Source: Psammoneis japonica (Eukaryota). From it: 44,536 bases of DNA. The stretch is taken from assembly GCA_008632985.1 (NCBI GenBank), contig QPGO01000227.1:62001-106536 (forward strand). The letters are read 5' to 3'. The notes beneath the pieces are model-generated. The model saw nothing but the letters and a program-made list of their open reading frames with translations. It was not told the DNA's origin and ran no database searches. The number at the start of each line of letters is the position of its first letter. Within the stretch, counting starts at the first letter, position 1. The position numbers were made by a program, and so were the translations under genes. This document shows positions 1-44,536 of this stretch, one piece after another.

Positions 1-2783
1 AATCTATGCCCTCCTTGCGCACGGTCTTCATGAACTCCATGCCAGGTTTTGTTTGCTCCTTAGATCCATCCATCAGGAGTTTCTCTGGCACGCCAAATTC
101 CTGGCAAAACATTTTGAGAGCTTCGCCAGCCTCACTCTTTTTGTCCATGGGATAAATCGCAGCAAAGCATTGCTTGTTTGTTAAGATCTGAGCATGTCAA
201 TTGCCCTCCAGCAAAATCACCTTGCCATCAACCATGTTGGTTGCCCATTCACCCCGTAACCCAGGCTTTGTGAACATCCAATTGGCCCGATGGCGTTGAC
301 CCATTGGCATCAATGCTGACCTGATGAGCTTTTGCACAGTCTTCTTGAGTGCACTTGCTGCTTGCTTGAGTCCTGTGCACCATCGTTCACTCAAGTCAGC
401 AGCCGATGCATCACCATGTCTCTCCTTAGACATGAATGTCTTTGGGAGTGCCAAGTCTTCAGGTCCTTTGCCAATTGTTTCCGTGGTGGAGATCTGGACT
501 GTTGACTCCGATTCCACGTTGACGGCAGCCATGAGCCTTGATTGGACTTGATCGACTCCACAAATGAATCGCTCATTGCAACAGTCCCTGGATTGAGGGT
601 CACTGCAGGCAGGATCAGCTTTGAACTCGTGTGTCAGATTGGCATGGATCGTCGCAATTGACCGAACTAGCTCCATTTCCTCCTCCGCAGATCGTCGAGT
701 TCCAATGGATTTGAACTTGACGGTCTGTGGATCCCAAGGTTGTTGGGAGGTCATCTGGATCTTGGGGCATTCGTGCAATTCCTGCTCTGCAGGAGTGCGA
801 GTTGCCACAACAACATTGGTCCCCACAGCTTCAAGTGGCATCATGAAAGATCTGTCCTCTGCAAGGACACACAGTGGCAAATCAGAGCAGGGGTTGTCCT
901 GAACCTTAACACCAAAGTGCTGCAGCTGGTTTGGGCCAACCAGCGAGTGCTCCATGGAATCCGGCATCCACAAGCCCTCGTGGAAGACCAGAACAAATGT
1001 TGCTCCCGATGTCGGTGACGTCCACGCCGTGGCTGCCGAGACAATTGGGACACTCTTGATGGAATTGCATCCCTCGTTAAAAGGCGATGCATCACATTCT
1101 CGTCCAGAATGACCTGAGAGGGTAAAGTTTTGACCAAAAACAGTGGTGTCAGCATGCGAACCCATTTCAAGGCGTCCATGCTGTGCCTTGCTCATGTCAC
1201 GGATGTGAGTGATTCGTGTGGTGTCAGACCGCGTTGCCGAGACACGCCGTGTCGAGGTGACAACCTCACAGACGCGTTTGTCACAGCCACGTGGGTGCTG
1301 CTCCTTTGATCGATGCGGCTGTCCCCTGCCCCATTGCAGCAACCACAACAAGAAGTTTGTGATGCAACAGAGCAGGGTCCAGCTTGGCAGTCATTTGTTC
1401 TTTCCTCTGTGCTTTTCACTGCGACCACCGAATGCGTCTCCGGCATTGTCTCTGTCTTTGCCGCCAGCCCTTGATTCATCATCGCCAGAATCGGCGCTGG
1501 CATTGGTGTTCAGGGCAGAGATTTTGCAGTTTGCTTCTTGCGACTTGACGGATGCAGCACAGCGTTTGGTTGGTTTGGGTTGTTTGGCAACACCCAGACG
1601 CACGCGCTTGTCGACAACCTTCTGTTTGTCCTCCTCACTCAACTGGTGCCAATTTTTGTGGTGTCCAGTGTCAATGGATCCATCCTCATCATAGATGGCA
1701 CCACCCTCTCTTCCGCCTCCACAGGTGACTGCGGCAATCGCATGACGATGCGCAATCGTCTCTGGAAGGGTGGCAACTTTTGCAGCAAGATGATTGGCCG
1801 CCGTGGTGAACATGATGCCTCCTCCAAACTCATTCTGTGCCTTCAAGGTCTCAACTGCCGCTTGCAGTGATTGGTGCTGCGTCTTCTCAAAAAGCATCCA
1901 TGATTTCTGGGCCTCCGTTTTTGGTTCGTTGTTCTCCTCAAAAATGTCAAACATTTCTTGAAGCTTGTTGACAAACAACTCAAACGGCACAGCGCGTTCA
2001 CTCTTGCAATGGAGGGTGTTCTCCATGCGCTTGGCTTCAGAGATGCGGCGGGAGGCATTCCCTTCTCCCTGGCAATGGTCACACAACGCCCTAAAGTCAA
2101 CTCGTCCGTTCTGCTCATTCTTGTGGTCTTTCAACCATTGCTCACTGGGTGTGCCCGTGGCAAGGGACTCAATGAGCAAATGAACCGCACGAGTGTCAGC
2201 CTTGAAAGCTGGGCCTCTTGGAGGGGTGCACATGCAATGCACTTCTGGACAAAAGTGTTGTGGCCTTGAGGTTCAGGTGCATCGTTTGACGTGTGCAACA
2301 CACTGACGGCACGCCAGAGACTCCTGGCATGATGCCAAGCACATTCGTCAAGCCAGTGCTCCACTTGACCCAATCCTTTTCACTCTCTAACATCCCGGGT
2401 GACACCTCTTTGCTGAGAGAGTCAGCAGTGGTCTTGGTCTGGGAACGGATCTCGGCATGACTGAGTGCCGTCTGGAGAGCAGCACGGAAAGTTGCCTGGT
2501 CAAGCCCATCCAGAGCAGGGTTCTCACTCACACGACCAAAGTCCTGTGCCCAATGGATGAGAGCTTTGAGTCGACGACTGCGGGCCAAACCAAAATGAAT
2601 GCGCCCTTCAGCAACCGTCCTCCCAGCACATGATGACGCAAGAGAGTCGATGTCTTCTTCCTTGAGGTCTTCTAAATTGTCAAAAGACGCAAAGTCCGCC
2701 ATGAGCAAGACTCGTTGAGCTGGATCAACAAATCCGATCCATTCGAGTGCTGTCTCGACAGGATCTGGAGGGGCAGCCGCCAT
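1..2783 (-). mobile_element. Degenerate Ty1/Copia (CoDi-like) LTR retrotransposon gag-pol, running off the window start
   Basis: Gag-like ORFs 2196-2783 and 1391-2242 (frameshifted); protease-like 'RLEMGSHADT' (consensus ELDSHADT); integrase core continues past the TGA at 197-199 ('FCQEFGVPEKLLMDGSKEQ'). Order PR then IN indicates Copia. Almost no Tyr codons. Confidence 0.85.
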
Positions 2784-3381
2784 GGTGGCACCTGTGCCAG
2801 CAGGAAAACAGAGTCATGTGAGAAATCACAAATTAAAAGAAGGATGTCTCGGTCTGTGTTGACGACAACACACAGCCATCAGAAGCATGGAGACTGGCCA
2901 TGTCTCCTCACTGCTTGTGCACTCACTGATGCCAGGCAACGACAATCATCACACACCCTTCGATCGACCGGCGTTCATCGTCACAACCCCGTCATCTTGG
3001 CGCGATCGTCTCTTCACAGTTGTTCAATGCATTTCGTCAAACCAAACCTGAGTCAACGACTTGGCTCTGACAAAGCGAGTAAATCTAGCTGCCGGATGGG
3101 CTCAGCCACTCACAGTCTTAGTGCGATGGCGCGAATGCAACCAATGAGATGCTTCTGGGCCTGTTGCAACTGCAACGGATGCAACAAGTGAAGACCATTT
3201 CGCGGTCATCGGTGTCACTGTCTGCATGCCACATCACAGTTTCTCCACAGCACCTCCCAGCCAGCTAGAGCACACCAGGCAGTCCCTGATGCACTGGATT
3301 TCATTCGCAACAGACAACAAAAGAATGCAAAGCAAGCAAGGCACCAGTGGGTGTGGGGTGTGGGCGTTGGTTGACCAGGCC

Positions 3382-4960
3382 ATGGCGTCTCATAAAAGCG
3401 CATGCGACCATGTTGACATTGCACTTCCGAATCTGCCTTACTTGGAGAAGGCATTGCAGAGGCAAGAAGAAAAATGTTCAACGAGGTGGGCAGCTCATTC
3501 GCACACACCAATTTCTGTGGAAGCTTGGCCGGACTTTGCAGCCAAGAGATGAGAGGCATCACAAAGACCCAAGAACACCCGCGTGATTGGCGCCAATGTT
3601 GGCACAAGCGCACCGCAAGAAAAATTGAAGAAAGTTACTTCAGAAGAGCATGTGACAGTCAATGCAGAGCGTTTGCTCGAGACAGTCTTTGATGGAGTAA
3701 ACGCCGGCTTCGACATTGAGCAGAACAGTGCGTTCACGTTGTCACAGCCAGACCTGGTTGCGCTAAAACAAGAAGGACAACGCATCATTCCCGCGCCTGA
3801 ACACACGTCTCCAGCATGCCGCAAGGCAGTGGGAAGACATGTCATTGCAAACACCGTTCCGTTGTGTGCTTTCGAAACTAAGCCGTTCTGGAAATTCAGG
3901 TTTCTCAAAGACGACAACAGTGCGGAAGCACCAACCACTCTGTTTCAACACCCCAACGGCTTCACTGCTGAAGATTTGAAGAAAAAGAGGCCGCTTCCCG
4001 ATGACTGGGCACATGAAAAAATCAAAGTGTTTCACTTGATTCGTCAAGTTTACGGTCAAATGATCTCTTCGCAGTTGCGGCATGGTGTGATTCACTTGTG
4101 CAAGGTCTCTGGTGGTTTTGCTGCCGCGATTCCAAAGGTGCTCTCAAAATTTCTCGTCCATTTCGAAAGGAAGAGACCTCTCCATCAGCACTTCAGGCAA
4201 TCAAGACGATTGTAGAGTGTGCTGACTTCATCCTAGAGGAGACGCCTCATGCCACCCTGCTTCCGCCGTCAAGGCCCGTCGCAAATCGAGTCCCACGGAA
4301 GGCCCGAAGACGAGAAAGACAGGAGTCGCACCACAAAGGGCATGTCATAACAAGCTCCCGAATCAAGATTGGAAACGTGGTGGAGGCAAAAGTAAGTCAC
4401 ATGCACCATTGGGCTGCTCTAAAGGCCCGGCTGGATTCGCTTCTGGTGTCCACATGTGGGACTGCGAATTGGTGGACTTCAATTCCAATGTCAAGCTCCT
4501 CGCCAGCCAAAAAAACCCATCGGTCCTTATCAAGATGCAGTGCAATACTTGGGCAGAAGATGTTGCGGAAGAGATGGCAAACGAAGCTTCTATGCACAGT
4601 AAGCTCAGTGCGAATCCTAATGTAAAGGATGTAATTGCCGAGTTCTATGGGTTCAGTGCCCATCTTTGAGTTCCCTTGTTGTGCTTGGGAAAGGTAGGCC
4701 CTAGTTTTGAGGACATTGGACTAGAAAACATTGCTCTTGACCTTCGATCATCGGCAGTAGAAAGTTTGCGTCTCCTGGGTGGAGCTGGGCTTGTGCACAA
4801 CGATCTGGATCTCCGAAATATCGTGCAGAGCAAGCAGAACCCGAAACGCGCCAAGATTATCGATTTTGGTCGCTCTGAATTCTCTGATAATAGTAGGCTA
4901 CTCGAAGCTCAGGTCGAGACCCTGAAATCCATTTTGAATCTTTCTCATGATTTTGAATGA
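3382..4960 (+). pseudogene. Frameshifted gene with a C-terminal protein-kinase-like domain, preceded by a QxYGxM...RHGVI segment
   Basis: Consecutive partial ORFs in shifting frames; kinase motifs 'LVHNDLDLRN' and 'KIIDFGRS' in 4676-4960; in-frame TGA at 4667-4669. Confidence 0.6.
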
Positions 4961-5080
4961 AGGCTTGTGCTTGCTGGCTCCATATTAAATACAAGTAAGG
5001 GCCCTCTCATAAAGCTGCTACAATAAACCAAAACTCACCTCTCGCTCCCGTTCCCTCCTGTTTCTAATACAAGTAGCACC

Positions 5081-6064
5081 ATGAGCACCGACACTGCTGG
5101 CAATTACAACAACTGCAAGAACATTCCCAACCTGGAGGGCAAAGTGGCAATCGTCACGGGTTCCAACAGTGGTACCGGCTACGGCATTACCTACCACCTT
5201 GCCAAGCACGGTGCAAAAGTCATCATGGCGGCCCGAAACCAAGATAGGCTAGAAGAAGCCCAAAAGGCCATGCTGGAAGAAGTTCCGAATGCCAATCTCC
5301 AAATCGAAATCCTCGACTTGTGCAGTCTCCAAAGCATTCGAGAGTTTTGTGACCGCATCAAGTCGTCCTATACGAAAATTGATTTTCTCGCCAACAACGC
5401 GGGTGGTGGATCCGCCACGTACCAAAAGACGGTTGATGGATTCGAGTCGAATTTCTTTTTGAATTATCTCGGTCACGTGGCCTTGACGACGCAATTGTTG
5501 CCCGTCCTGCAGGATGAGAGTCGTATCGTCAATTTCTCCAGCATCGGATACAAGAGGTTCTTGAAGAACGACCTGGATACAGAACATTTGGAATGCACCG
5601 ACCCGGACCAATACGATCAAATGGAAGAGTATTGCAGAGGCAAGCTTTGTTCCATTTTGCATTCCGTCAAGCTGAGTCAAGAATTTCAAAAGGTCGGATC
5701 GTCCTCGTTGGCCTTGGCGTGCCATCCCGGCAACGCCCGAACCAATTTGCTCAATGCCGACGATCAATCCTTTCTCGTCAAGTACTTTTTGCGATTCATC
5801 CTTCCTCCCCTCTTTGCCTTGTTTGGAATGAGTCACAGCTTGTATGATGGTGCACTACCCGCTGTGGAAGCCTTGGTGGCAGACAATGCCAACCCCGGAG
5901 TCGTTTACGCGCCGGGTAACAAGAACGAAATGACGGGCGATCCCATTCCGTGGGAAATTGATCACACGCATTACAAGGATGAAGATGTGGACAAACTCTG
6001 GAACAAGACGGAAGAAATGTTGGGAATGAAAGCGAGTGATTTCCTCAAGCAAAACAAGCAATAA
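5081..6064 (+). CDS. Short-chain dehydrogenase/reductase (retinol dehydrogenase/WWOX-like), 327 aa
   Basis: TGSNSGTG cofactor motif, NNAG, catalytic YCRGK, HPG; intact ORF with normal Tyr content. Confidence 0.93.
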   Translation: MSTDTAGNYNNCKNIPNLEGKVAIVTGSNSGTGYGITYHLAKHGAKVIMAARNQDRLEEAQKAMLEEVPNANLQIEILDLCSLQSIREFCDRIKSSYTKIDFLANNAGGGSATYQKTVDGFESNFFLNYLGHVALTTQLLPVLQDESRIVNFSSIGYKRFLKNDLDTEHLECTDPDQYDQMEEYCRGKLCSILHSVKLSQEFQKVGSSSLALACHPGNARTNLLNADDQSFLVKYFLRFILPPLFALFGMSHSLYDGALPAVEALVADNANPGVVYAPGNKNEMTGDPIPWEIDHTHYKDEDVDKLWNKTEEMLGMKASDFLKQNKQ

Positions 6065-6916
6065 TATTCCCTTGCGCACCCCTACTTTGTGAAGCAAAGG
6101 AACCCAGTTGATTTACATTGTTTTAAAATAATACTTTTCATGTCGTCAAATAGGCACAGTCCCAGCATCATACTGTATTATGTAGATTCTTATTGACAAA
6201 ATGCAGCTACTTTTCCGCTTTTTCGCATGAAGCTTAGTAGATACTTCTCCGAAGTACCGTAGGTGTAATACTATGATGTGTCTCCGGTATCATTTACCAA
6301 CTGTTGGTATGGAGACCACGAGATGGCTCCAAGGATTGTTTCTTATCATGGGAGTGTGTTGAGTTCACGCAAGTTGCGTAATAGAGAATGTAAAACTCGA
6401 CGAATCGGATCTGGACGAATCCATCTACCCCCAACTACAATATCTTTCTACTTTGTAGTTTAAACTATTCCATGAGAACCCGTTGTACTTGGATAAGTAA
6501 GAGGAAGTCGTTACTACTTCTACAGTGATTTACAAGACGAAATGGCGTCAAGCTCAAACCGGTATATTCTTGGTGCTCATCGCATGGCGAAGCAGCAAAA
6601 AGATAGAGACAGCAGCACAGCACGGATGACATTATGCAGCAAAACGCCATCTTCCGATGTACTGTAATATGGTAGATGCCCGCCTGATCGATAAGAAAAC
6701 CGGTTGATATGGTGTTGTTACAATGAGGCACCTCACAAGACTGTTCAAAACGCAGTTGTTTCCCGTTGCCTTCGTCGAATGTTGTGCAGATGAAACAGCA
6801 AACGCGACAAGACTGTTCAAACATTGATGTCTGCCTCTGACACGACTGTTGAAAACTCATAAAATATTAATAAATGAATACCTTTGGATAGGCATACTCA
6901 ATCGTAACCGCCATCA

Positions 6917-8085
6917 AATTGTCTACAAGAATGTTCAAAATTTAGTCAAATTAAAGTATGAATAGTATCTTGGCAAAGATTTCTTAAGGATAACCGCCAC
7001 CCACTATACAAGACCAATTTGTCACTCCGAAACTATTGCCGGCGCAACGGTCAATTTCAAAATCACGTAGAAATGAACAAAGAATTTTTGGTATGTCGTT
7101 TCACACGAAACATCCAGATTTTGAAATGAAAATCAACACGAATGAACCATCACATTTCGTCTCATCTCGTCTCACAATTCTCACTTTTGTTCTTCCCTGC
7201 CCATCAAACCACTACATCACCATGAAAGCTTCCCTTGCCTTCCTTCTTCCTCTTGCCAACGTCTGCGTTGTTGACTCGCACTCATTGAGGAAGCATCACG
7301 TTCACGGCGCACGCATTCTTGACGAGTACAGCACTTTGGCAAAAGAAACGCAAACGCATGTAGATCCAGACCTTCTGGGCCTAATCCAACGAGACCCCGC
7401 CTTTGAAATGGTAGCTGCCGATCACAAGTCAACCAGAGAACCAAAGGCCTCCAGATCGCCGAAAACTTCAAGAGCGCCTGTAACAGCACCCGTCGTCAAT
7501 GTCGATTCTCGGTCCTCCAAGTCGCCGGTATCAGCAAAACAAGGAAAGGTTTCAACCAAGTCAAGCACCAAGTCGCCGAAATCTTCCAGTTCCACCAAGT
7601 CACCGAAATCTTCCAGCTCCACCAAGTCACCGAAATCATCCAAGTCTTCGAAATCATCCAGTTCCACCAAATCACCGAAATCATCCAAGTCTTCGAAATC
7701 ATCCAGTTCCACCAAGTCGCCAAAATCATCTAGTTCTACCAAATCGCCGAAATCATCTAGCTCTACCAAGTCGCCGAGTTCATCTAGCTCTACCAAATCA
7801 CCGAGTTCATCCAGTTCTACCAAATCACCGAAATCATCCAGTTCTACCAAATCACCGAGTTCACCCAGTCCCACCGCGGCACCGTCTTTAACTGTATAAG
7901 AACGCTTTAAAGTTTATGACATTTCAGCTACTCTTGGATTAGACCAATGCTCTTGAAGGTGCTCTCTAGAGCACTCGACCCATGCGGTGCTCTTTATGGT
8001 GCTCTACAGTAGCTGACAGAGAGCACTCTGTTGACTGTGCGACAGCAGAGCAGCGCAGATGGACGCATGCATGTGTGTCACTCGA
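6917..8085 (+). repeat. Local duplication unit (upstream region + silaffin-like gene + 3' region); paralogous to ~21321-22472
   Basis: Shared blocks 'acaagaatgttcaaaa', 'taaccgccacccact', 'aactgtataagaacgctttaaagttta', 'gactgtgcgacagca', 'tgtgtcactcgaat'. Confidence 0.85.
7222..7899 (+). CDS. Silaffin-like secreted Ser/Lys-rich protein, copy 1
   Basis: Hydrophobic N-terminus MKASLAFLLPLANV, RIL (RXL) motif at 7312-7320, many KSPK/KSSK repeats (STKSPKSSS units). Confidence 0.7.
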   Translation: MKASLAFLLPLANVCVVDSHSLRKHHVHGARILDEYSTLAKETQTHVDPDLLGLIQRDPAFEMVAADHKSTREPKASRSPKTSRAPVTAPVVNVDSRSSKSPVSAKQGKVSTKSSTKSPKSSSSTKSPKSSSSTKSPKSSKSSKSSSSTKSPKSSKSSKSSSSTKSPKSSSSTKSPKSSSSTKSPSSSSSTKSPSSSSSTKSPKSSSSTKSPSSPSPTAAPSLTV

Positions 8086-10024
8086 ATTGTTTGCATTGGA
8101 CCAATGCGCAAAGAGCCAGACAAAAGGAATTGCTTCCCAATCAAATTAAATTCGGATGAAGTGGCAGACAACATGGAGCCACCACACTTGTTGCTTTTGG
8201 CACCATGTCACATGCTCTGCAGAGTTCTGCGGCCACAGCTCTAAACTTGTGATGCACCGACTGTCACTGAGTGCAGTTGTCATTCTTTGCCAGTGCAAAA
8301 AGGATTGTGTTTGATGAGTCAAAGGTGGCAGTTGACACTGGTGCAAACAATGGAGTCTTTGTGGGTCATTGGACCAACTTTTTCAATGAGGCTGTCAAAC
8401 AAACGGACCTTTTTTCCTTTGCATTTTGACTGCAACAGCAGTGCCAACCAACAATGTGAAGAAGACACTCCATGTGTTGAGAAGGAAGGGATGAGTTGTG
8501 GTTGTGTTTTCAATGCCAAAATGGACCTGCAGCATTCACAGGATTTTGCACAACTTTTGTGCATCACAGAAAGTCGATGCACGCGGTCGCCAAAACAGAT
8601 CTCCAGTGCACAAAAATGACCTTGTTGTGAGCTGATTTAGATGTGGTGAATTTGACGGTGTTGTTTTTGTGTGGAATGTTTTGAGTGCAGGGGAGGGGGG
8701 TCAAAGTGGCCTGAGAATGGGTGTCCCAACTTTGCAGTTGAAAGTCGCTGAAATCTTCATGAGTCTGCAGTTGTTGAGCTGATCAAAAGAGATGAAATGG
8801 AGCCTGCAGACTGGGTGAATTGTGGCGGTTCTGATGGTGTTGTTTTTGTTGTCATGAGGTGGAAATCAGCATCTGTCTCATGCATTTGTGTTCATTTTGT
8901 TGTCGTGTTTTGGGGGTCTGGTGTTGGTTTGTTTCTCACTGAGAAAGCAGCTCCCTGGAAGCATGAATGAATGCGTTCGGTTTTTTGATGCTGGTGTTTA
9001 AGACAATTTTGTGCAGCAGATGCAAGTGTCACATGAATTGAGACAAAGTGTCCATTTGCACATCACCTGGCACCGGAAGAACATGTTTTGTTGACATGAT
9101 GACTTGCACAAGATCATTCTGCCCTCCTTGGGAGTTAGCCAGCACATTTGCACAGCGCTGGACTGCAAACTGCTTTCTTCCCATTGTGATTTGCCAATCT
9201 CCAAGCGCTGGGTGTGACGCTCTTTTTTTTTGCTGACTTGAGCTGAGAGACTGGCTCCACAGCAATTTGACCTTGTCACCACCAAAGACACGCCACTGCA
9301 AACAACCAAGAAAAAAGGCAGCAACAACAATCTCTCATTCCAACAGATGGGCATTGGGGCATGCCCTTTTGCCATTTCTCACAGATGCAGTCCATGTGCC
9401 TCCAACCCCAGTCATTGTGTTGGCAAAGTGACAAGCCATTCTTTTTGGGTGGTGCCTTCAAGCATGACAGAGTGTGGAAAAGGTTTCCAGCTTTGATGGT
9501 TGCTTTCTTCTTCTTTGATGAGTTGACAACTTTCATTGCTGATCAAATTTTTTGAACAGCGAGATTGCTCTGACTGGTCAAGGAGATGTTTGGTGATGGG
9601 AGGACACAATTTGGATGCTTGCAGTGCAACAAGGCAACACAGTCAAGAGGATGTTGCCACCAAATGTGCAAGGAAAAACACTGGCAACCTTGACTTTTTC
9701 CACACCTGCAATTGCCACATTTAAGTGCAATTTTTTGTCACAGAAGATGCCAGTTCAAGTGCCCAAAAATTTCTCCATTCAAGTGCCCCACAAGAGCTTT
9801 GACAGCTCCTGTTTTTTCTTGCTTGCTCAGCAGCCCACAAAACAAAGAGACAAAAGCAAAAACAAAGGGAAGAGCTGACAAGGCCATGGAGGTTCCAAAC
9901 AAAAGCCCCCAATGAGACAGATTCCTTGTGCAGAATTTCTCAAAGTCACCACCAGCACACTCTTTGGCTGCATGGGGAGGTGATTCCTTGCCAAATTCCT
10001 GACTCCAGATGCACGTGCATGAGT

Positions 10025-10966
10025 GGTGTGTTTTCATCCTCTGGGTGAGAAACTTTTGGACACATCACAAGGTTTTCTGCATGTTTCCACTGGTGACATG
10101 CAAACTGGCGCTGAACCTGTGTAAAAATTGAGCTCCACAACAAAGACACATTTTTTCATGTCTTGAACCACAAATTGCGCACACAAAAATGACACCATGC
10201 TGCTGCCATGAACTTGTCCATTTGCACACCAACAGCTGTCAAGACTGAAAAGGCAAAAATGTGGTTGACATTTTGATTTTTGCCATTTGTTGTGCCTTGC
10301 AGGATGGTGGCCTTTTGACTCATGACATTTTTGATGGAGTCAGAGTGCAGTTCATTTTTGGTGTGAGCTCTTTGCACACAATGAACAATGTGCACATTCT
10401 TTCAACAACAGACAGGTGCAACAAAAAAAGCAGAGCAGTCTCTCAAATGTGCCTGAACAACAACAAAGTGCAGTTGGCTGACAGCTTTGCCAAAGATTTG
10501 GCAAAATCACATGATTTTGGCACATTGAGAATCCCACCATCCAGGTTGCTTTGGGCAGGTTGGCTGCATGATGTGGTGCATGGGGTGTGCTTTGCAGCAG
10601 CACAGTGCGTGAAACCAAAAGTGCAATGGAGTGGAGCTCTGAACCACCAATGATTGGATCTGGGACCAGCTCATCAAGCTTGTTCCAAATCTGTGCTCAA
10701 ATGGATCGGAGTGGCTGTCTTTCAATGCATCTGTGCGTCATCCACACGGAGACCAATTTCATCACCAGTGGACACTCCAACTGGCCAACCACCCATGCGC
10801 ACCCTCCAAACAAAGAGAACAATGGCTGGCTTTTCAAAACAAACAGATCTGAGGAAAGAAGAAATGAAAATTTGGGCGACACTCCAGTCAGATTTGTTTG
10901 CACAAAAAGCAAGTTGAGGGAAGAAGAACAGACAAAACGTCTCACCTTCATGCACGTTTCTCACCT
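10025..10966 (-). mobile_element. Diverged, inverted, partly truncated copy of the TIR element at 19031-20349
   Basis: Start 'gtgtgttttcatcc..gggtgagaaacttttggacacatcacaagg' is the reverse complement of that element's right end; 10800-10966 matches its left portion. Confidence 0.8.
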
Positions 10967-11448
10967 TTGAAATCTCACCTTTGCACGTTTCTCTCCTTCA
11001 ATCAAAACACACTGAGCTTCCTCGTTGGAGCCTTCTTTTTTGGAAGAACCCTGGGATGACTTCTCCAATGTCTTTTTGCCTCCAAACAATTGCTTGCATT
11101 GCATGATTTGTGAGTGCCCTTTCCAGCCATCCATGGGGCCCTGAAGGGTGTCCTGACAAGCCTGGGCCACAGCTGTGGTCAAAAAATTGATTCAAGCCAA
11201 TTGGTCAGCATGGTGTTTCCAAAGCAAGGGCACTTGGTGTGACAGCTGTCTGCCCATCCATCAGAAGTGGCATCTGCAGTGATTCCAAGTCCCACGCAGC
11301 TGGCTGCCTGACGTCACTTTCAGTTTGCCAAAATGAAGAAACTGGCACATCAGGGTGCAAAACCCTTTTTTTGGAAACACTTTTGCACAAAACCTCAAAA
11401 ATGACCAAGCAATCATTTGTGGCACATCTCTGCTGAAAAAAAAAAATG

Positions 11449-12835
11449 TGCAATATACAGCTACTAATAAGAGTTAATGTATCACGGCGACGTGTTACAG
11501 CCTTTAAATGTCACAAAGGGCGTGACAAAAACAACTTTTTGTCTGCATGCATACTGCAAATGCCCTGGTGACGGGTTCCAATCCTAGGTGGGACTTTTTG
11601 TGACATTGGGCGCGTAGAATTCTACGTGCGAGCTCCGCAGTAAAATTATTAAGCAATGAAAATGTGAATGATCGCTGACAGAAATAGAGGCAATTTTACG
11701 AACGTATCTCCTCCTCCAAATTTGAAGTACGTTATTTATAGTTTGCCCGGGTATATTCTTTAGACATTAAACAATATACCCAGCGCATTTTTATTGTCAT
11801 AAATGTAGAAAACAGAAAGCCTTTGGCTTCGCAAAAGAGGCAGTGTGGAACAATTTTTTACAATAGAACACGTAGAAATGTACGTGCAAAACATACGACG
11901 GATGACAAAAAATAATTATGTCACAGTCCAGTAGTGCGAGGTCCCACCTAGAGCTGGAACGCGTCTGGTGGCACCTTTTCTGTGTTCAGTGCACAAAAAA
12001 CATGACAGCACCAGACGCCAGAAGCACCATTTGCTCTTAAAAACTTGGTGGCGGGGTGGTGGTGGCAAGTGTTTTTCTTTGCGGTGTGACAGGCTTTTGC
12101 ACCACAAGTGGCCAAGGACATCATGAACACAGGCGCTTGCCACCTCCCACTTCTTTGTCATCATTGCATCTGACGAAATGGTGGGTGGCATCATGTCTGA
12201 TTGTTTGCACACTGAGCTCAGAATTTGCATGCAAGCCACATGATTTTTTCTTTTGCAGCTTGCATGTGATTGCATGAAATCCTGTCTTCAACCCCAATGC
12301 CATGCTTCCACACGCAATCACAGTCCCGCCATTTTTTGCCAAAATGCGTTTCCAGCCAACATGTGTCATGCCAGTGCAAAGTTCCCAACAACATGTGAGG
12401 TCGCAAGCAGAAGGTTGCGTTGGTTGAAGAGCTGTCGCTAAAAATTGCCCCCCCCACGCTTTCACGTGTGATGAAGTTCTCAGCAATGACGCCATGAACA
12501 ACACGTGCCCGGTTCATTCTTGCAAGATGTTGGTTTAAAGAGCAGGAGACTGACAATGCTCACATCTCGTGCACTTTGAGGCTCCATCAGGGGGCAAAAG
12601 TCCAGCCAGTTTTTCCAAAAAATTTGAGTCAATGTGGGATTCAAGACATGTGACTCACTGTGCAATGAAGGGAAATTGACCCTTTCTTGACACCAATGCT
12701 GAATGACAACATCAACACAAGACCCTGCAGCATGCATGCAGACAAAAGGTTGTTTTTGTCACGCCCTTTGTGACATTTAAAGGCTGTGACACGTCGCCGT
12801 GATGCATTGGCTCTCATCAGCAGCTGTGTGTTGCA
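11449..12835. mobile_element. Non-autonomous element bounded by ~110-bp inverted repeats (11449-11558 / 12726-12835), containing a nested MITE
   Basis: The two arms align as reverse complements, differing almost only at TpA sites. Confidence 0.8.
11570..11965. mobile_element. MITE (GAC...GTC termini, 4-bp TSD TGGT), unmutated TpA-rich copy
   Basis: Ends 'gacgggttccaatcctaggtgggac' / 'gtcccacctagagctggaacgcgtc'; TGGT at 11566-11569 and 11966-11969; interior differs from the other two copies. Confidence 0.85.
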
Positions 12836-13953
12836 ACCCGTTTCTCATGGCCGCGATGTTCTGCTCTCCAATCCACGGCTGCTGGCCCCTGTCTGACAAC
12901 TCTGGCTGATCTCTCTGCTGCCACAAATGGGCAAAGCAACCCACCACAACTCAGGTTCAACATTTGCACTTTTGAGATCAATCTGGAGCAGAAAAAGCAA
13001 GACAGAAGCTCAATTCATTGAATCTTGTCATCAAATGGGGTGGTGGCAACAGCGCCATTTTTTGTCAACATTGTTTGACAGGCTCTTCTGATCATTCACC
13101 AAGAATTTTGCAACCAAACTTCCTTGTGTGTTTTCACTCCAGCTCAACTCTCTCCAAACCAACAACATGAAAGTGGAGCCATTGCAGTCACTTCATCATG
13201 TCCTCGAAAGATCCCTTGGACCCAAGCCATTGCTCTGCATGCACAGCAAAATCTGGGGCCGGTGTTCTTTGCTTTCTTGAAGACAGTGACCACAACAGCT
13301 CTGTCTCTGTCTTGCACTCAGTTGACAGAAAACCAAGCTTCTGCACTGGCAAAGCATTGCACCACCACAAATTGATTGTTTGTTGACTGATCTTTGCATC
13401 TCCGTCAGCTTTGACTCAGTGGTGTGCCGAAAATGCAGCGAATGGGTGGTGCACGAAGAACCAGCATGCGAGACAGTGTTGCAAACAACCAAATTGGTGT
13501 GTTCATCAACAACTTGCCACAAAATCAAAATCATGGAGATTGCAGTTGTGCACCTGTCAAACAGATGCCAATTGACAACATGTCAAACAGTGTGCGCTCT
13601 CGCAAAAAACAAAGGTCCAGCAGTTTCAAGTTTCGCAACATTGCAATGACCGCCATCATCGTCAAAAGTTTTGATCAAATTTCTCACAACAGCGCCATGG
13701 CGATGGTCTGCACGCTCATCAGGAGTGAGTGTGCAATGCCAGTTTGGATTTGCTTGGGACCCACAGCAGCTGCAAAGACACATTGTGGCCAAACAAACCA
13801 GACACACAACACACCAGTCAAAGTTGTCGCTCACAAGCCAATCCAGGTGTTTTTGTTGAGTTCCAACTCCAGCTGTCATGCACAATCAACAAGAAGCAGT
13901 TCCCAATGTGCGCCCCCCCCAGATTGACCACAGTGGAGGTGCTGGTGTCACAC

Positions 13954-14385
13954 TGCAGTGTGCCTCGCTGCTGGACAACACGGCGAGACCGTGCACAAGC
14001 CTCTTGCACGTGGCAACGTGGTGTTGTTAACACGCACCTGGGAAGCACGACCACAGGAGGGTGTGGCTCCAGGTCTCAGGCAATTCCAGAAGGATGCCAA
14101 GAGAGCATCCGTGTGAAGCACACCAGCCCGTCGTCTGGCCCACGATGGCAGCGTGATTCCACACGATGACATCACTCGTGCATGGCGCGTGATGGCTTGA
14201 TTCACACAATCAACAATGCGAATGCACGATCGATTTGATGCGATCCAAATGCGAACGAATGGGGATTTGGCAAGATTCCCCATTCGCACGATCCCATTTT
14301 CTCTGCTCCAAACTAGCTCACAATTTTCACAACGACAAAGTCGCAACACATCTTCTTTTTCAGCGCCTGGTGCACACATGGGGCA
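13954..14385 (+). repeat. 5' LTR of the Gypsy element
   Basis: Direct repeat of 20447-20878, same length. Confidence 0.9.
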
Positions 14386-17092
14386 CAGCAATGTCACTCC
14401 CGCATGTTGTGCGAGGCAACGAAATCCACAGAAACGAAACTACGAAATGTTGGCAGGACCGACAAATCTTAAAACGACCATGAAGAAGCGGATTAAGCCG
14501 CCGACTCCGTTCGCACGACCGGAGAAGAAAAAGCTGCAGCAGGGCGAGTGCCAGACGTTCAAGCTGCATGACAACCCCGCTGATCCGGATGGTCCAACGC
14601 ATGAGATGGGCATTCCGCACCTTTCTGCGGCTACATGCGAGACACTCCCAATCTTTCCACGCAACGTGGATTGCGTGCACGAAGGACAAAACATCACGAC
14701 CGGGCCAGCGAAATTTGCCCTCATGCGTGACCCACTGCAGGGCGATGCTCTGACGTCATCCAACAATGCCGCTGACGAGCAGGCACCCCAAACCAATGCT
14801 GCGTGCGCAGCATGCATCGCGAAGCTAAAGGAAAGCATCTTCCCACATGGGGTGGCACTGTTGCAGAAGCGTCATCTGAGGCGCTTCATGCGCAAGCCTG
14901 CAGAGGTTTCTGCTCGTGACTGCGTCGCGAGGGCTGTTGAAGTTAACGACTGTGTCTCTCAGTTTCCACCCGTGACGGAGGATGGAGAAGCACCGGCACC
15001 ATCACCCAATGACAAACTGTGCCATGTGTTCGAGTGCGGTGTGCCGAACACATGGCAGAAGTTCATGACGCTACAGAATTTTGACCCGTTGGCGCATGCC
15101 ATCGCCGAATTCACACAGTTCTGCGAGCGCACCGAGCAGGTCGAGCTTGCCGAAGGTGACAGCGACCAACACACTAGGGTTCCACGTAAGCGAGGACGTA
15201 GAACGGACAATTCTGAGTCGTTGATCACGACCCAACCGAACACCCACATGAAGCGTGTCAAGACTGGACATTCCAGCAACGGAGGCAGCAAGCCCAATGC
15301 AAAACATCGGAATGAGGAAGACGCTGATGCTCTCATCGGATCGAAGGTCAAGGAATTCTTTGCCAATGCTCAGAAAAAGCGCAAGGCACACAAGGAGGAG
15401 CTCAATCACTTCCGTGACCTCAACTCAAGTGATTCCGAAGACTCGGGCACTTGCCGACACGATGCAGGCAGTTTTGACACATTGGGTGAATGCACAAATG
15501 AACAACTGAATCACCATCGTACACGTGTTGTAGGCCAATCCCGCAAACGAGTTAAAAAGACTCATCTTGCTCCAATCTTGCCCACAGCTGTGAATGCCAA
15601 ACATGGCAAGGGCAAGACTCAAACCATTAAGGCACCACTAGATAGTGGCGCCAGCAGCACACTACTCGACAGTCGATACTGTAAACGTCTGCGAAGCCAT
15701 TCAACGGCTGAGACAAACTGGACTACGGTAGCAGGCTCGTTCAGTACGTCTAACGACTGTACCGTTAAATTTTGGTTACCAGAATTATCCGAAACTGCAG
15801 AACTTAAACATACCGTCCACGTACACAACGGAAAGTTGGGCAAGTACGATATGATTATTGGACGTGACATTCTGGAGACACAAGGCATTGATATTGTCTT
15901 CTCTAAACACATGATAGAGTGGCCATTAGTCAATGGAGAAGTACCGATGAGGCACGTAGATGCTACGGTAGAAACCTCCTTCTATCTTCAAGATCCAGAA
16001 GCCTTATCTTCGGAAACCGACCGGATTTCGCGTATTTTAGACGCTAAGTACGCGCCGGCCTTCCTCAAGGACATAACGCGAGGGGCAATAGAACTTTCTT
16101 TAGTTCATTAAAATGACCTTTTGGCACTATTGAAACGCCATGAGTCTCTATTTGATGGGACATTAGGACAATGGAAGGGAGAACCCTACCATATCCAACT
16201 CAAGGAGGGTGTAGAACCATACCACGCTCGTCCGTATAAAGTACCTCGTGCGTACGAAGCTACGCTACGTAAAGAAGTAGAGCGCCTAGTACGTATCGGT
16301 GTTCTCAAACGCGTTAACCGATCCCAATGGGCAGCTCCATCATTTATCATACAGAAGAAAGATTTAACGGTACGCTTTATTAATGATTTGAGAGAGCTAA
16401 ATAAACGGATTAAGCGATTGCCTTATCCGATTCCTCATATCCAAGACATGCTACTTAAGCTCGAAGGCTTTATGTGGGCTACATCACTGGATTTAAATAT
16501 GGGCTATTATCACATCCGATTGGATACTGATAGTAAGAAGCTCTGCACGCTCATCTTCCCGTGGGGCAAGTATGAGATGCAGGTGTTGCCCATGGGATTA
16601 TGTAATTCGCCAGACATTTTCCAAGAACGCATGTCAGGCTCATTTGAAGATCTATCGTTCGTTCGAACGTACTTAGATGACCTTCTCGTCGTGACGAAAG
16701 GCACCCATGAAGATCACCTCAACAAACTTGAAGAAGTTTTGTTGAGAGTCCAGAAAGCAGGACTAAAAGTCAACGCAACTAAATCTCACTTCTGTCAAAC
16801 CCAATTAGAATGCTTGGGTTATCTGGTCAACAGAGACGGAGTGCGACCAACACCCAATAAAGTCGACGCCATCAAGCGAATCGCGACCCCAACCAACAAA
16901 CGCGACCTCCGTTCATTTGTTGGCATGGCGAACTGCTGCTGCGACACGTGGATTAGACGTTCTGAAGTCTTGGCTCCGCAAGCGAGACTGTCAAGTGGGA
17001 GTGGACGTCCGTTGAAGACGAGGCGTTCGAAACCATCAAACGGGTGATGTCGGATGATGTTTTGTTGTCACATCCTGATTTTGATGAACCCT

Positions 17093-20349: not shown

Positions 20350-20446
20350 GAACGGAGCGCTGACAGATGCGCACAATCTACGGCAGATTGCACCCTGTCA
20401 CCAGTGAGACATTCTGTCACTTGGCGGCCCTGATCATGGGGGAGTG

Positions 20447-26068: not shown

Positions 26069-27052
<984 letters not shown>

Positions 27053-34328: not shown

Positions 34329-34483
34329 TGTGGGGTTGCACCCAGAGTAATAATCAGGAGGCGGCAGCACTTTGAGTTCAGCCGAGTTCGCCCCGGTTGG
34401 AGCAATTCCATGTTTCCGTTGTTTGGCGCAGGGTCGTTTTTTTGGCGGGAGAAGCGGGCATGTCCTCTAGGGTAGCTCTAGCT

Positions 34484-34759
34484 AGTATCTTTTTCCGCAT
34501 GTACAACTTGTACCAATTCTACTGGTGAACTTGGAAGTACCCAGTTTCTGGTATCTTTTTCCGCATGTACAACTTGTACTAATTCTACTAGGGCATATGA
34601 CAGCACCAAGTGTTCCAGTAGCTTTCTACGTATCGTAGAACTATGTACTAATCCTACTAGTGCATAGGACAGTACCAAGTGTCCCAGTGAGACTTCACGT
34701 ACGTACAAAAGATACCAAATCTACACAGCACCAAGTGTCCCAGTGTGACTTCACGTACA
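34484..34759. repeat. Short imperfect tandem repeats
   Basis: 'gtatctttttccgcatgtacaacttgtac' x2; 'accaagtgtcccagtg.gacttcacgtac' x2. Confidence 0.75.
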
Positions 34760-35125
34760 ACAGCAATCTTTCGTGCCGTAGAGTCATTGTTTCATAAATA
34801 CGTAGAAATTATGTAGACCAGCACCAGCAAAAATGTGAAATTGTCTGTCCGTCTACCCTCAGTGAATTTAAATTCTGCGAAAATGGACTTTGCTGCAAAG
34901 TAATCAGGCGCATTTTAGAACAACATGTTTGCAGAAACACGCCTGACCAGCCAGCAGCGATGTCCTTTTTTGCAAAAGTTTTGAGACGATGACAGCTTTG
35001 GCACAAAAGCGTGTGGATTCTGCGGACGTCCATGAGCACTTTGTGCGATTTGCGTCACGGGTCATTTTTGAAAGATTCCCGCTGGGTGCAAAAGGCACCA
35101 AATCCACACAGTCACTGCTGCTGCC

Positions 35126-35515
35126 GATGCGCTCCAGCTCCAGGCGGGACTCCGTGTGACATTTGGCCCGCAGAATTCTGCGTGCGAGCTCCGCAGTGCA
35201 AGAACTCAATTGATGGATGCATTTGTCTTCAACATCAAATGAATGGCCAAGTTTGTGGTGCAATTGTGCCTCTTGCCACTCGACATTTTTGCTGGCACGC
35301 CTGCCCTGCACCACTCTCAAGACATTGTAGAATCGCGCTGCAACAAAAAATGTCAAAAGTTGTTGGACGGATCGTTCAATGAGTGTGCTGTAAAATGACA
35401 CAAAATGTCAAAAAAATCACGCAGAAATCTGCGTGCGCGACATGCGACGTGATTCAAAAAACTGTCGATGTCACAGCTCAGCAGTGCGAGGTCCTGCCTG
35501 GACCTGGAGCACATC
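35126..35515. mobile_element. MITE (390 bp, TSD TGCC), heavily mutated copy of 17093-17482
   Basis: Colinear with the 17093 copy; TGCC at 35122-35125 and 35516-35519. Confidence 0.88.
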
Positions 35516-36059
35516 TGCCAAGTGCTCCAGCATGACTCCACGCATGTAAATTTCAACGTGCACCGGGGTCATTTTTCCACACGATCAAAAGTGCCCATGA
35601 GGTGTTTTTTCAACTGGCTCGTGATTTTGCAATTTTCTTGCACTTTGCCTGTGTCATTTTGCAGCACCTCTGAGCACCCCCAAACACTCTTGTGAGTGTG
35701 TCCAGCCCCCATCAGGGCTGTTGGACCTGTGTGTGAGCTGCACATTTCAACCTTCAAATGCCAGCTGTCGGGCTTGGCTCAGTTGTTGCACTCGACAAAC
35801 CGCTGTTTTTCACCAAAGTTGAGCTGCTCAAGGGAGGCAAGCCATGGCTTTCCAGGAAATGCTGACAACTGGCGTTTGACCAGCTGCGGACATTTCTGCG
35901 GTTTTTGTGCCAAAGATGGATCGTGCATGGCATGGCCACAATCCACAAAAATGCAAGCTCGCACGCAAACAGACCTCATCTGGATGAAGACAGAGCCGCG
36001 GCCAACAACGAGTGAGCAAACAAGTGCTGACGTTGCACTTTGTTGTCCTGCCAAGTTAA

Positions 36060-37585
36060 ATGCTGAGGATCAAAAAGGACGTTGTGAAGGAAGGAGCATC
36101 CTGGTTCAATTGTCTTGGATTGCTGTTGGTGATTCCTCGGCACTCGATTTCTGCTGGGATGTCAAGCTTCATGTCTAAGACCACAGATGAAGAAAAAGAC
36201 ACGCCAGTGTCGAAATGGGAAAAGGTGCACTGTGAGGGAGAGCAAGTCAACCGAAAAACAATTGTGCACGTTGTTTCATCTCGCAACTTGAAACTTGCAG
36301 CCCCGCTCACAAAATGGCTTGCACTCAAGCATGTGAAGACAACGAGAAGCAGAACAAGCGCAGCCAAGGCTCTTCCCAAAAGTGAAGCTCGGGTGACTGC
36401 ATTTGATCTGGACAGCGCCACATGGAAAATGACGCCAACCATTGCGGCAGCTGACGATGCGCTCACTGAGTTTTTGGATCAACCCAACATTCATCAACCC
36501 ATTCGAGTCAAAAAAGTCATGGGTGAATTGTTTCAAGCGCAAAAACCATGACACTGTTGTTGATGGAACAAGATTCAAAAAAGAAGGATGCGCTGCCAGA
36601 TGAACCCAAGGCACTGGTTCTTTTGACCCTTTTGCGACAGGATGCAACTCAGCACATTTTAGAAGAGCACAATGACTTCTCAGAGGAGGAATCCATGTTG
36701 CTTGCGGATGAGGCCTTTCATGTCTGGACAAGAGCGCGGCACGATGTGATCCCCTCTTTTTGGCCTCAAACGCCAAAGAGTGTTTGGAGAAACTCAAGAG
36801 CAGTGCAGCCAGATCATCAGGCAATCCAGTCTTGATTGGAGCCATCACTGATGGCAACTCGTCTCCTCAGACAGTCAAAGGATTGGGAGAGCATTTTGAT
36901 TTTTGCATCAATGCCAAAAGCGTGGGTGCAGCCAAGCCTGACAACCGTGTCTGTGCAAAGGCCATGCGGACGGTTGGTCAACATCCTCATGCGCAAGATT
37001 TGTTTGGATCGCTCTTGCAAGAAAACAAACTGACACCGGAAGCACTGCAGGAAATGGTTGGACCGTGGTGGGTGCATGTTGGTGATGACTTTGCCGATGA
37101 TGTTGTGGCTGCAAAAGGCTTGAACACGAGAAGTGTTTGGTCGAGGGAACTCATCAATGTTCCAAAAGCAACAGAAGCCAATGACAAGGACAAGCAGAGA
37201 ATTTTGTCAAGGAGATGTCAGAAATGAAGGAAATGAAAATGGGCGCTGGGCTGGGTGACCATTTGGAGGACGCGATGTGTCATGAATTTGCCGATGCCAT
37301 TGTAGATTGGTTTGAAGAAGTGAGCAAATTGCTGCTGGCATCAAGAAGGCTTGAATTCCCTGCAAGAATCTACAATGGTGGAAGCTGCCCTGGCTCAAGA
37401 GAGTGACAAAGAGTCATCTCTCGAAAAGGAAACGCCAATGAGTGGCGTGCTTGAAGTGATCAAACCAGCAGCAAGAAATGAGCCAGCAGAAGAAGCTGAA
37501 GTTTTGTGTGCATTGCGGAACCAAGCCACCAGTTGACACAAAGTTTTGTCTTTCCTGCGGTGAAAAACAACCTCAAGCAGACTGA
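36060..37585 (+). pseudogene. Hypermutated, frameshifted HAD-like hydrolase with C-terminal double zinc ribbon
   Basis: 'AFDLDS', 'GAITDGN', 'AKPD', 'HVGDDFADDVVAAK'; C-terminal 'KFCVHCGTK..VDTKFCLSCGEKQ'; nearly TpA-free. Confidence 0.8.
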
Positions 37586-38153
37586 CAAGCACATGATTGG
37601 GGGGGGGACTGTGCAGCCAGCGTTCAGATGGGTGGTGTTGTCGCAATGTGCAGTGCGTGGCTTTCGCCAGCAGGGCAATCCTTTGTGCAGTGGCGACACT
37701 CATTTCTTCTCGTCCCGCTCATTGTCAGCTGCAAACCACGCATGCGGTCAAGCTAAATCAAGTCTGCGAACAGTTGTCGGAGTTCGAAATCAAGTTCAAA
37801 CAACAGCAGGAGAATGCAACCGCGAGGTCAGTGTTGACTCTCTAGCTAGAGAAGAGCACTGCTTGTGCCACTTATCCTAAACACTAAACCTTGTGCTGCA
37901 CATTGCATTACGTTGTGTCCCATGCTTCTATCTGCGAAAATGCTTGTTACGCCATCGTAGAGTTGGAAGGAGCTCTATGACCACCCTCAACCCGAGGGCA
38001 AATTTAGAGGACGAAAACAAATGCGTCTGAAGTGAAACTAAGCATATAATGGCTTTAGTTGGGCTAGAGTTAGGCATGTGAAACCTCCAGATCAGGCAAG
38101 ATACAATATACCGGTACTTTTCAAACACGATAGCTACAATAGAGAAAATGTGC

Positions 38154-39437: not shown

Positions 39438-39439
<2 letters not shown>

Positions 39440-43774: not shown

Positions 43775-43995
43775 GGTTCTAACGATAATACGAATAGTTT
43801 TTTGTGGGAGCCGTAATGCTTCGTCATGGTAGGTCACGTTTTGGCCGGTTGTCACTCACAAAACGTGACTCCAACTCGCGGCAGAAGAAGCAACGCCATC
43901 TGCAACCTGCAACACCACACTAAAAATTTCGAAATTTTGGAGGCAATAGTGACGTCATTCGATCAATGGCACACGCACAGCATATCATACGTACG

Positions 43996-44536
43996 TGCAC
44001 ACATCAAGCATGTGGATTGCCTGCCTGGTGCCAGGCAACAAGTTCCAAAAGAGGTGTTGGGGGCATGAAGCCCCAGTGCTCTGCCACCAGCTTTTCTTGA
44101 GGTCCAAGTTGAGTGTGAAATTGGCTGGTGCAACGCACTGCACAAAACTGCGGAGCTCAGTGCCACTTTTCAGTGTGCGCGCAAGATGACAACAAAAATG
44201 AAGCAAGGCTGAGCTCTTCCCAGTCAGCTTCAGCAAATTGCACCCAGGAACAATCCACGCACAAGTGTGCCGCAAGTTGTTGCAGTGATGTTGAGTGCAT
44301 TGTTTTGGAAAACTTCCATTGTGTAAAAATGCACAGTGTGCAACTTGCGCCAGCCAAGTGCGTTGTTTTGGAAAACCCATCTTCTCGTGAAGTGCACAGC
44401 ACACAGTTTGCACCAGAAAAATGGAGCGAGCATCAGAGCTTCTTGTGGGTGCGTTCCATGGCATTCTCATCTCAGTTTGGTTTTGCCATGGGATTCTCTA
44501 AAATTCCCTGGGATTGCCACCTTTTGCTGTGATTTT
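43996..44536. other. TpA-depleted tract, probably a mutated repeat continuing beyond the window
   Basis: Abrupt loss of TA after 'catatcatacgtacg'; open in several frames; no recognisable protein. Confidence 0.55.

Follow-up and report, generated by a model that had tools for sequence, protein, structure and literature searches.

What process has stripped the dinucleotide TpA from transposon DNA in a diatom-like genome? This question is raised by a stretch of 44,536 nucleotides (nt) from Psammoneis japonica (contig QPGO01000227.1, positions 62,001 to 106,536 of the forward strand), which was analysed in full and is called the window here; coordinates are counted from its first letter. An earlier note on this DNA had reported tracts almost devoid of TA and had suggested a repeat-targeted conversion of TpA to TpG and CpA, acting as a reverse of fungal repeat-induced point mutation (RIP). 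Our analysis indicates that mobile or foreign DNA integrated in this genome probably has been subject to strand-symmetric A:T-to-G:C mutation at TpA, which acts at the DNA level and has run nearly to saturation.

Across the window, the observed-to-expected (o/e) ratio is 0.43 for TA, 1.36 for TG and 1.35 for CA. Segmentation reveals that the TA deficit is not diffuse, being concentrated in six sharply bounded tracts. When pooled (18,755 bp), these tracts contain 106 TA (o/e 0.09), compared to 1,206 TA (o/e 0.66) in the 25,781 bp outside them. The o/e values for TG (1.67) and CA (1.61) in the tracts exceed the value of 1.15 outside, and that for CG is 0.62 versus 0.97, with a local minimum of 0.04. 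If the TA count expected in each tract is taken as the count at the host o/e of 0.66, the Poisson probability of the shortfall is 2e-8 for the 544-bp tract at the end of the window and reaches 2e-61 at the other extreme. TAA and TAG have almost disappeared from this DNA (96 and 60 occurrences on both strands, alongside 893 of TGA), and as a result open frames overlap on the two strands of the tracts; these long frames are by-products, not genes.

Mutation is restricted to blocks of transposon DNA, and these blocks are sharply delimited. Tract 1 (from position 1 or 154 to 4347, minus strand) has 25 TA in 154-4347 where 160 are expected and carries a Ty1/copia-type remnant, and tract 2 (8011-11453, minus strand), an old diverged repeat with a CG o/e of 0.22, has 7 where 167 are expected. 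Tract 3 (11950-15552) comprises an older repeat plus the 5' part of a Ty3/gypsy element, whose 3' part, together with the remainder of the older repeat, makes up tract 4 (from 16955 or 17398 to 21349). Tract 5 (34917-37842, plus strand) has 9 TA versus 124 expected, and tract 6 (43993-44536; CG o/e 0.37), which reaches the end of the window, has 2 versus 23. These are the tracts that first drew attention, and most of the limits originally given lie close to ours, except that the first tract ends at 4347 rather than 3300 and the third at 15552 rather than 15150; an estimate by eye of about seven TA in 8100-11450 proved to be exactly 7. Tract edges lie at 8010, 21350, 34917, 37842 and 43993. Those that can be set beside junctions between transposon blocks and host DNA (8010 and ~21350) agree with them within ~30-45 bp, and no spread into the host was seen. 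Host genes are normal in TA, as had been claimed, with 1.7-5.0% Tyr in six host open reading frames (ORFs).

The direction of change can be read from the Ty3/gypsy long terminal repeat (LTR) retrotransposon at 13954-20878 (plus strand; 6,925 bp), which is organised as gag, protease, reverse transcriptase (RT), RNase H and integrase. Its LTRs (13954-14385 and 20447-20878; 432 nt, 93.5% identical) have TG...CA ends, the element is flanked by a 4-bp target-site duplication (ACAC), and Pfam recognises RVT_1, RT_RNaseH, Integrase_H2C2 and rve domains. In tblastn searches with gypsy homologues the identity is 56-58%, and the pol of the homologues continues across a miniature inverted-repeat transposable element (MITE) that splits the window's pol between RT and RNase H. 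For the RNase H-integrase (RH-IN) region, polarity was established by alignment with 60 of at least 120 homologues, the closest among the matches listed being 57-58% identical, and a column was called conserved when it was at least 80% conserved. By this measure 53 of 262 conserved columns have changed, 29 of them by one step from TA to TG or CA and 3 by one step from CG to TG or CA. None of the 11 conserved Tyr residues is kept (6 became Cys and 5 His). Further recurrent replacements, as expected from such steps, comprise I>T, I>M, L>P, L>S and V>A, together with T>A and I>V where the preceding codon ends in T. The three RNase H peptides once quoted in support of such changes are present in the sequence, and the 667-aa RH-IN ORF described as lacking Tyr has 0 Tyr along with 30 Cys and 29 His.

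The whole gypsy element is TA-poor save for one patch from 15553 to ~16800 (plus strand), which covers the protease and most of RT and is normal in both TA and CpG (TA o/e 0.89-1.15 in 15501-16500). In the bins spanning 15600-16799, none of the eight conserved Tyr is lost, and differences are limited to 12 of 178 conserved residues. Directly downstream, 15 of 43 conserved residues have changed and three of four Tyr are lost, and both edges of this 1.25-kb patch fall within a single reading frame.

Similar changes are seen in the copia-type element of tract 1, whose gag/protease-side ORFs lie at 200-2813 (minus strand) and which runs beyond the start of the window. The ORF at 200-1390 (minus strand) has 0 Tyr in 397 aa, versus 1.6-3.5% in homologous segments, and the 384-aa copia ORF singled out earlier is likewise free of Tyr. 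Among the conserved columns of the ORF at 200-1390, 39 of 139 have changed, with a TA origin fitting 11 and a CG origin 7. The copia label itself is supported by RVT_2 (PF07727) on 22 of the 27 longer homologues of this ORF, the copia coding region being present in the window with its N-terminal part only. A Pfam search with the ORF itself gave no match, and an Atlas search gave weak leads to gag_pre-integrs and Pol_BBD (scores 0.85-0.88). Sequence comparison supports the assignment of tract 1 to what is probably the 5' part of a Ty1/copia-type element.

DNA pairs within the window agree with the residue changes on the direction from TpA to TpG and CpA. A TA-normal patch at 11449-11967 (plus strand) consists of one arm of a 110-nt repeat (11449-11558) and MITE copy 1, and the inverted partner of that arm (12726-12835) lies in tract 3. 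The arms differ at 11 sites, and all 11 differences are A:T-to-G:C when read from the TA-bearing copy, with 9 falling at its 10 TpA; the one spared TA is embedded in TTTAAA. The MITE family (~390 bp, with 25-bp terminal inverted repeats (TIRs), internal palindromes and 4-bp target duplications) provides a further comparison. Copy 1 (11570-11965, plus strand; 25-bp TIRs, duplication TGGT) is TA-normal and has a differing central part, copy 2 (17093-17482, plus strand; 390 bp, 25-bp TIRs, duplication CCCT) is the one that splits the gypsy pol and retains 9 TA, and copy 3 (35126-35515; duplication TGCC) is mutated and lies inside tract 5. Seven of the 9 TA of copy 2 appear as TG or CA in copy 3, and TA, TG and CA are all found at the same sites across the three copies.

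The two LTRs speak to both timing and rate. Identical at their origin, they now show 28 differences, 25 of which are transitions and the other 3 transversions. Of the differing sites, 14 make up seven TG-versus-CA pairs, four are TA versus CA, and five are CG versus TG or CA. The seven TG-versus-CA pairs cannot derive from CpG because 25 CpG remain intact in both LTRs; they are therefore former TpA sites that were changed independently in each LTR, and mutation must have occurred after the LTRs became separate duplexes. TA-derived sites account for 18 of the 28 differences, and rough rates of ~1.8 hits per TA site and ~0.006 per other site imply a bias of a few hundred-fold. A few T>C changes outside TpA are also present. 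Depletion appears to be graded with the age of the elements, the TA o/e being ~0.03 in old CpG-poor repeats, ~0.15 in the gypsy element and ~0.3-0.4 in the inserted MITE.

Neither DNA strand is preferred. Products at 66 polarised sites are 33 TG and 33 CA, and the RH-IN coding strand carries 16 A>G and 13 T>C changes that are interleaved along the region. There is no evidence along RH-IN for bursts confined to one strand, with 13 runs observed and ~15 expected. Editing of sense RNA is ruled out because the products are strand-symmetric and interleaved. RNA hyper-editing of the ADAR type was rejected on the same counts, since A>G on one strand would be expected, and since an element with TIRs is mutated as well. 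To our knowledge, ADARs are metazoan enzymes.

Sequence context beyond TpA might also matter. Relative to its frequency in host DNA, which serves as the baseline rather than the ancestral elements, TA survival varies with the next base (TAT 0.04, TAC 0.08, TAG 0.15, TAA 0.28; chi-square P 1.5e-9). The most resistant tetranucleotide is TTAA, ATAC/GTAT is almost extinct, and among the products GTGC, GTGT and the complements of both show the strongest enrichment. When the struck adenine is assigned by strand, a pyrimidine at +1 is found in 25 cases versus 8 over all polarised sites, a count that is subject to codon ascertainment bias. A preference for a pyrimidine as the next base is suggestive.

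DNA other than retroelements in the same blocks is also affected. In addition to MITE copy 3, tract 5 contains a HAD-hydrolase-like pseudogene (~36400-37224, plus strand), with motifs I, III and IV located in three different frames and 0 Tyr in the five listed ORFs. The supporting matches are weak (Pfam E 1.6e-4, which is under the cut-off, and PDB entry 3vay at E 1.5e-4), and PDB sequence searches with two nearby ORFs returned nothing. This pseudogene looks like a cellular-type gene, possibly of bacterial type, that has shared the fate of the transposons. Action on chromosomal DNA is favoured because the MITE copy, the HAD-like pseudogene and the older repeat around the gypsy insertion are mutated along with the retroelements.

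That the target would be repeats as such was part of the original proposal, and this part is not supported. Mobile or foreign DNA is indeed hit on both strands and its coding capacity is destroyed, but copy number appears not to guide the process. A host tandem duplication (copy A, 6918-8010, plus strand, a gene for a Ser/Lys-rich secreted protein; copy B, 21320-22831, with homology starting at ~21320) is spared, even though the 13-kb transposon island sits between its two copies. Its copies are ~79% identical over 1,163 aligned columns, or 87% over 591 columns in a second alignment, and their differences amount to 33 transitions plus 45 transversions, a single TG/CA site being discordant; so divergent a pair is a weak control. 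The MITE possibly ranks among the genome's most abundant repeats: in a public DNA run (X1), the summed contig depth of its bin is ~2,600 times that of host bins, with gypsy bins at ~175-530 times, although these values are not copy numbers. Targeting looks regional and without copy-number drive, because copy 1 of this abundant MITE is TA-normal, copy 2 is partly depleted, and copy 3 is mutated together with its surroundings.

What reaction could generate such a pattern? Adenine in a T-A context might be deaminated to hypoxanthine, and the resulting I:T pair would then be fixed as G:C by replication. A TadA/ADAT2-like enzyme is proposed because the tRNA substrate of ADAT and TadA always presents U33-A34, and such an enzyme could be recruited to silenced chromatin or be guided by small RNAs. 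Adenine deamination on the chromosomal DNA of silenced regions is the mechanism that we favour; as the chemistry it has, in our estimation, at best an even chance of being correct. The mutation process itself converts Tyr codons to Cys or His codons, removes TAA and TAG, raises G+C and leaves the elements with long open frames that are non-functional. RNA-directed enzymes such as ADAT2/3, TadA and ADAR share with the window an A-to-G outcome and a preference for a 5' U or T, but they act on RNA and mark one strand, whereas both genomic strands and also non-retroelements are affected here.

A preprint on the chlorarachniophyte Bigelowiella natans describes TpA hypermutation of integrated viral and other foreign DNA (Mettrop et al., bioRxiv 10.64898/2026.01.13.699255). 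In mutation-accumulation lines of that alga, two integrated viral regions received 231 of 302 new single-nucleotide mutations; of these, 230 were A>G or T>C, every one of them on TpA, and rates were ~1,000 times background. Reverse transcriptase and DDE domains are over-represented among its TpA-depleted coding sequences, and the authors propose an ADAT2-like adenine deaminase, for which they point to reported editing of DNA by ADAT2 of amphioxus (Mettrop et al., bioRxiv 10.64898/2026.01.13.699255). The process inferred for the window is of the same kind, and the two cases have in common A:T-to-G:C change at TpA, TpG and CpA products, regional confinement to foreign DNA, a signature that is depleted in TpA and enriched in CpA and TpG, and an absence of dependence on copy number (the B. 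natans region derived from a nucleocytoplasmic large DNA virus, NCLDV, is single-copy). Thirty tract windows of 500 bp pass the preprint's two window limits, as do the pooled tracts.

The two cases also differ. The host of the former process is a rhizarian and that of the window most probably a diatom. In B. natans, the targets studied best are insertions of NCLDV and virophage origin in which TpA remains abundant (Rho 0.45; 3.3% and 9.2% TpA), whereas the window holds LTR retrotransposons near saturation (Rho 0.09) with CpG decay alongside, and is known from the end state of its sequence rather than from new mutations. The words 'diatom' and 'stramenopile' do not occur in the accessible text of the preprint. 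A full-text literature search, which did not extend to subscription journals, found TpA-directed hypermutation only in the B. natans preprint and no report for diatoms. As far as these searches reach, this is the first sighting in a diatom-like genome and in saturated LTR retrotransposons.

Comparison with other systems that mutate transposons helps to define what the process is not. Fungal RIP converts CpA to TpA, thereby creating TpA and stop codons and lowering G+C, and it requires duplication and a sexual cycle. Dinucleotide-directed transitions of transposons that are strand-symmetric, confined to elements and destructive to coding are common to ascomycete RIP and to the window, but the direction is opposite, and a dependence on duplication is not evident given the spared, diverged host duplication and the TA-normal and partly depleted MITE copies 1 and 2. 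APOBEC3, too, hypermutates retroelements, through a deaminase, and leaves changes that genomes have preserved. Unlike the process seen here, it converts C to U (G to A when the plus strand is read), is asymmetric between the strands, works on elements that have yet to integrate and enriches A+T. Decay of CpG in methylated transposons likewise yields a gain of TpG and CpA but leaves TpA untouched.

A more ambitious interpretation is that a dedicated defence, guided by chromatin or small RNAs, brings an enzyme that deaminates DNA adenine, or else one that modifies thymine, to the TpA sites of invaders and is shared by distant members of the stramenopile-alveolate-rhizarian (SAR) group, namely a stramenopile and a rhizarian. 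We put this forward tentatively and consider it rather less probable than its failure. If such a system exists, it would be a GC-enriching functional counterpart of fungal RIP, eliminating Tyr codons along with TAA and TAG stops, and may deaminate cytosine too, which would explain the correlated loss of CpG. A scan of viral contigs with the mutated RH-IN protein gave three pattern matches, none of which was confirmed.

The same signature would arise if the thymine of TpA rather than its adenine were the target, for example if a TET/JBP-type dioxygenase produced 5-hydroxymethyluracil (5hmU) or 5-formyluracil that mispairs with G and leads to T-to-C change. TpA is self-complementary and the sequence is blind to this distinction, as the equal numbers of TG and CA products illustrate. 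Mispairing of 5-formyluracil with G is known, and the 5hmU of dinoflagellates favours TpA, although a literature search on dinoflagellate 5hmU at TpA returned no papers. Thymine modification nevertheless is unlikely in our view: we see no evidence of such a base in this lineage, the T-A context fits the U33-A34 substrate of ADAT and TadA, and the B. natans authors propose adenine deamination.

Retrotransposon RNA or unintegrated cDNA might instead have been deaminated before integration, after the fashion of ADAR/ADAT or of APOBEC, so that the elements inserted in an already mutated form. The match of tract edges to the junctions between transposon blocks and host DNA is what this scenario would produce, and a double-stranded cDNA substrate would also give the discordance between LTRs. 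Sense-RNA editing, in contrast, predicts only A>G on the coding strand, which is at odds with the equal and interleaved A>G and T>C changes. The copy of a cut-and-paste type element with TIRs, the HAD-like pseudogene and unclassified repeats are also mutated, the gypsy element retains an internal stretch that escaped mutation, TA is also missing from the older repeat that surrounds the gypsy insertion, and the hits reported for B. natans are on long-integrated DNA. Together these points make editing before integration quite improbable, and mutation of chromosomal DNA remains the favoured reading.

Could the DNA still read TA, with a modified base at TpA having been miscalled during sequencing or assembly? 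The platform of neither the assembly nor run X1 is on record, modified adenines do cause A>G miscalls in some long-read base-callers, and a random choice of TG or CA at each site would resemble the pattern. Run X1 is the only public DNA run listed with the stretch, carrying 0.69 of its sampled words, and possibly is the source sample; two others of the same sample have next to no words, and no RNA run is listed with it. Its k-mer contigs match 5001-7421, 7753-9840 and 20851-21827 with 0 differences, the second of these crossing a host/tract edge over 2,091 nt at depth 67 versus 58 for host DNA. Further contigs match 10672-11496 with 4 differences, 11937-12561 with 1 and 12974-13864 with 2. Depth is 57-76 throughout, like that of host DNA, it is not halved in the tracts, and no bubbles occur in these contigs. 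Depth that is even with host DNA speaks against a heteroduplex or modified-base artefact, with the proviso that the run possibly is the source sample. CpG decay, frameshifts and graded depletion fit accumulated mutation, and the B. natans process is a true de novo mutation process in Illumina data. An artefact thus seems very improbable.

Selection for TA avoidance by active elements, for instance to escape a TA-specific nuclease or TA-targeting insertions, could be invoked for the long open frames that persist in the tracts. Such frames, however, occur in all six frames since TAA and TAG are gone, every conserved RH-IN Tyr has been replaced and 20% of conserved pol residues have changed, pol is split by the MITE, and the LTRs differ in product at the same sites. 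There is hardly any room for this explanation.

Decay of 5-methylcytosine from CpG to TpG and CpA, one of the outcomes that the earlier note had named as fatal to its own proposal, fits 7 of the 39 copia and 3 of the 53 gypsy changes and the low CG o/e of the tracts, but as the sole cause it is refuted, and its probability is close to nil, by the loss of TA where CpG is intact, by residue polarity and by the DNA pairs. It cannot remove TA at all, and TA is fully lost despite normal CpG at 14001-15500 (CG o/e ~0.95-1.0) and 19001-19500 (1.06). Relative to the host o/e, the tracts are short of ~680 TA and ~400 CG, set against a gain of ~1,150 TG plus CA. CpG decay is a second, slower and minority contributor in the same DNA.

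Several considerations weigh against the proposal that integrated DNA is mutated at TpA. Among the matches listed, none of the 120 gypsy and 27 copia public homologues is Tyr-free, and a second example outside the window thus has not been found. The proposal rests on one 44.5-kb window and one sequencing run, which perhaps is the source sample. LTR discordance dates mutation only to the time after LTR duplication, with which unintegrated double-stranded cDNA would be compatible. The untouched 1.25-kb gypsy patch demands an extra assumption, with gene conversion or local protection being possible candidates. TA o/e and CG o/e are correlated across 35 tract windows of 500 bp (Spearman 0.69, P 5e-6), which may reflect one enzyme acting on both TpA and CpG, or age alone. 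Finally, the next-base preference is not significant in the unbiased subset of sites (14 versus 7, P 0.19).

If TpA-directed mutation is accepted, the process is extended to a second major lineage and to retroelements, which suggests that it is old or recurrent in marine protists. We know of no natural process for A:T-to-G:C hypermutation of genomic DNA that had been recognised before 2026. Whatever enzyme is responsible would amount to a naturally occurring adenine base editor of DNA. The rules of targeting could be deduced from richer material here, since the window has nested elements that differ in age, a pair of LTRs, patches that were spared and effects of the next base. There are practical implications for genome analysis as well. 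During annotation, TA-poor tracts give rise to 'proteins' devoid of Tyr and to spurious long ORFs in each of the six frames, ages based on LTR divergence are inflated by TpA hypermutation (as the share of TA-derived LTR differences given above demonstrates), and hypermutated transposons are hidden from homology searches.

The remaining repeats of the window are older and less readily classified. The unclassified repeat that hosts the gypsy insertion spans 11950-13953 (CG o/e 0.30-0.47 in 12001-14000) and continues at 20879-21349, where it is TA-poor up to the host junction, the first dense TA appearing at 21350. Its 11950-13953 portion has no Pfam domain, and the same is true of tract 2 (8011-11453) and tract 6 (43993-44536). 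A blastn comparison of tract 2 with 19047-20347 gives 68-84% identity on the opposite strand, and its 10027-10966 portion is a reverse-orientation match to the 3' part of the gypsy element; on this sequence similarity, tract 2 appears to be a still older gypsy-related remnant in reverse orientation. Among 67 stop-to-stop ORFs from the tracts, Pfam found no transposon domain beyond the gypsy element, and the sole sub-threshold match was the HAD match. A metagenome scan with a 17-base core of the MITE returned 61 loci, all attributable to chance, with a longest blastn match of 27 nt.

The host DNA of the window encodes, by Pfam, a short-chain dehydrogenase, an ATP-synt_C protein, EamA, HSF, Atg22-like, MsrA, HECT and UBC products. 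The host proteins indicate that the genome is most probably that of a diatom. The recorded members of the Atlas clusters nearest to MsrA are mostly Bacillariophyta, and for the Atg22-like protein the one relative with a named organism comes from Nitzschia inconspicua (46% identity). The collection searched has no protein identical to those of the window, which suggests that the DNA does not come from B. natans, a species with a public proteome. The genes of the host duplication, at 7036-7899 and 21544-22236 (plus strand), encode secreted proteins with a signal-peptide-like start and Ser/Lys-rich repeats built on a 27-nt (9-aa) unit, and we take these duplicated proteins to resemble the silaffin-type proteins of diatoms. 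The ORF at 26111-27052 (plus strand) encodes a protein of 313 aa in which an ATP-synthase subunit c domain (PF00137, E 2e-17) is flanked by long extensions towards both termini; the protein also has a signal-like segment, and for a c subunit its architecture is unusual. Just outside tract 5, a 66-bp tandem duplication lies in TA-rich host DNA at 34482-34758 and is not TA-depleted.

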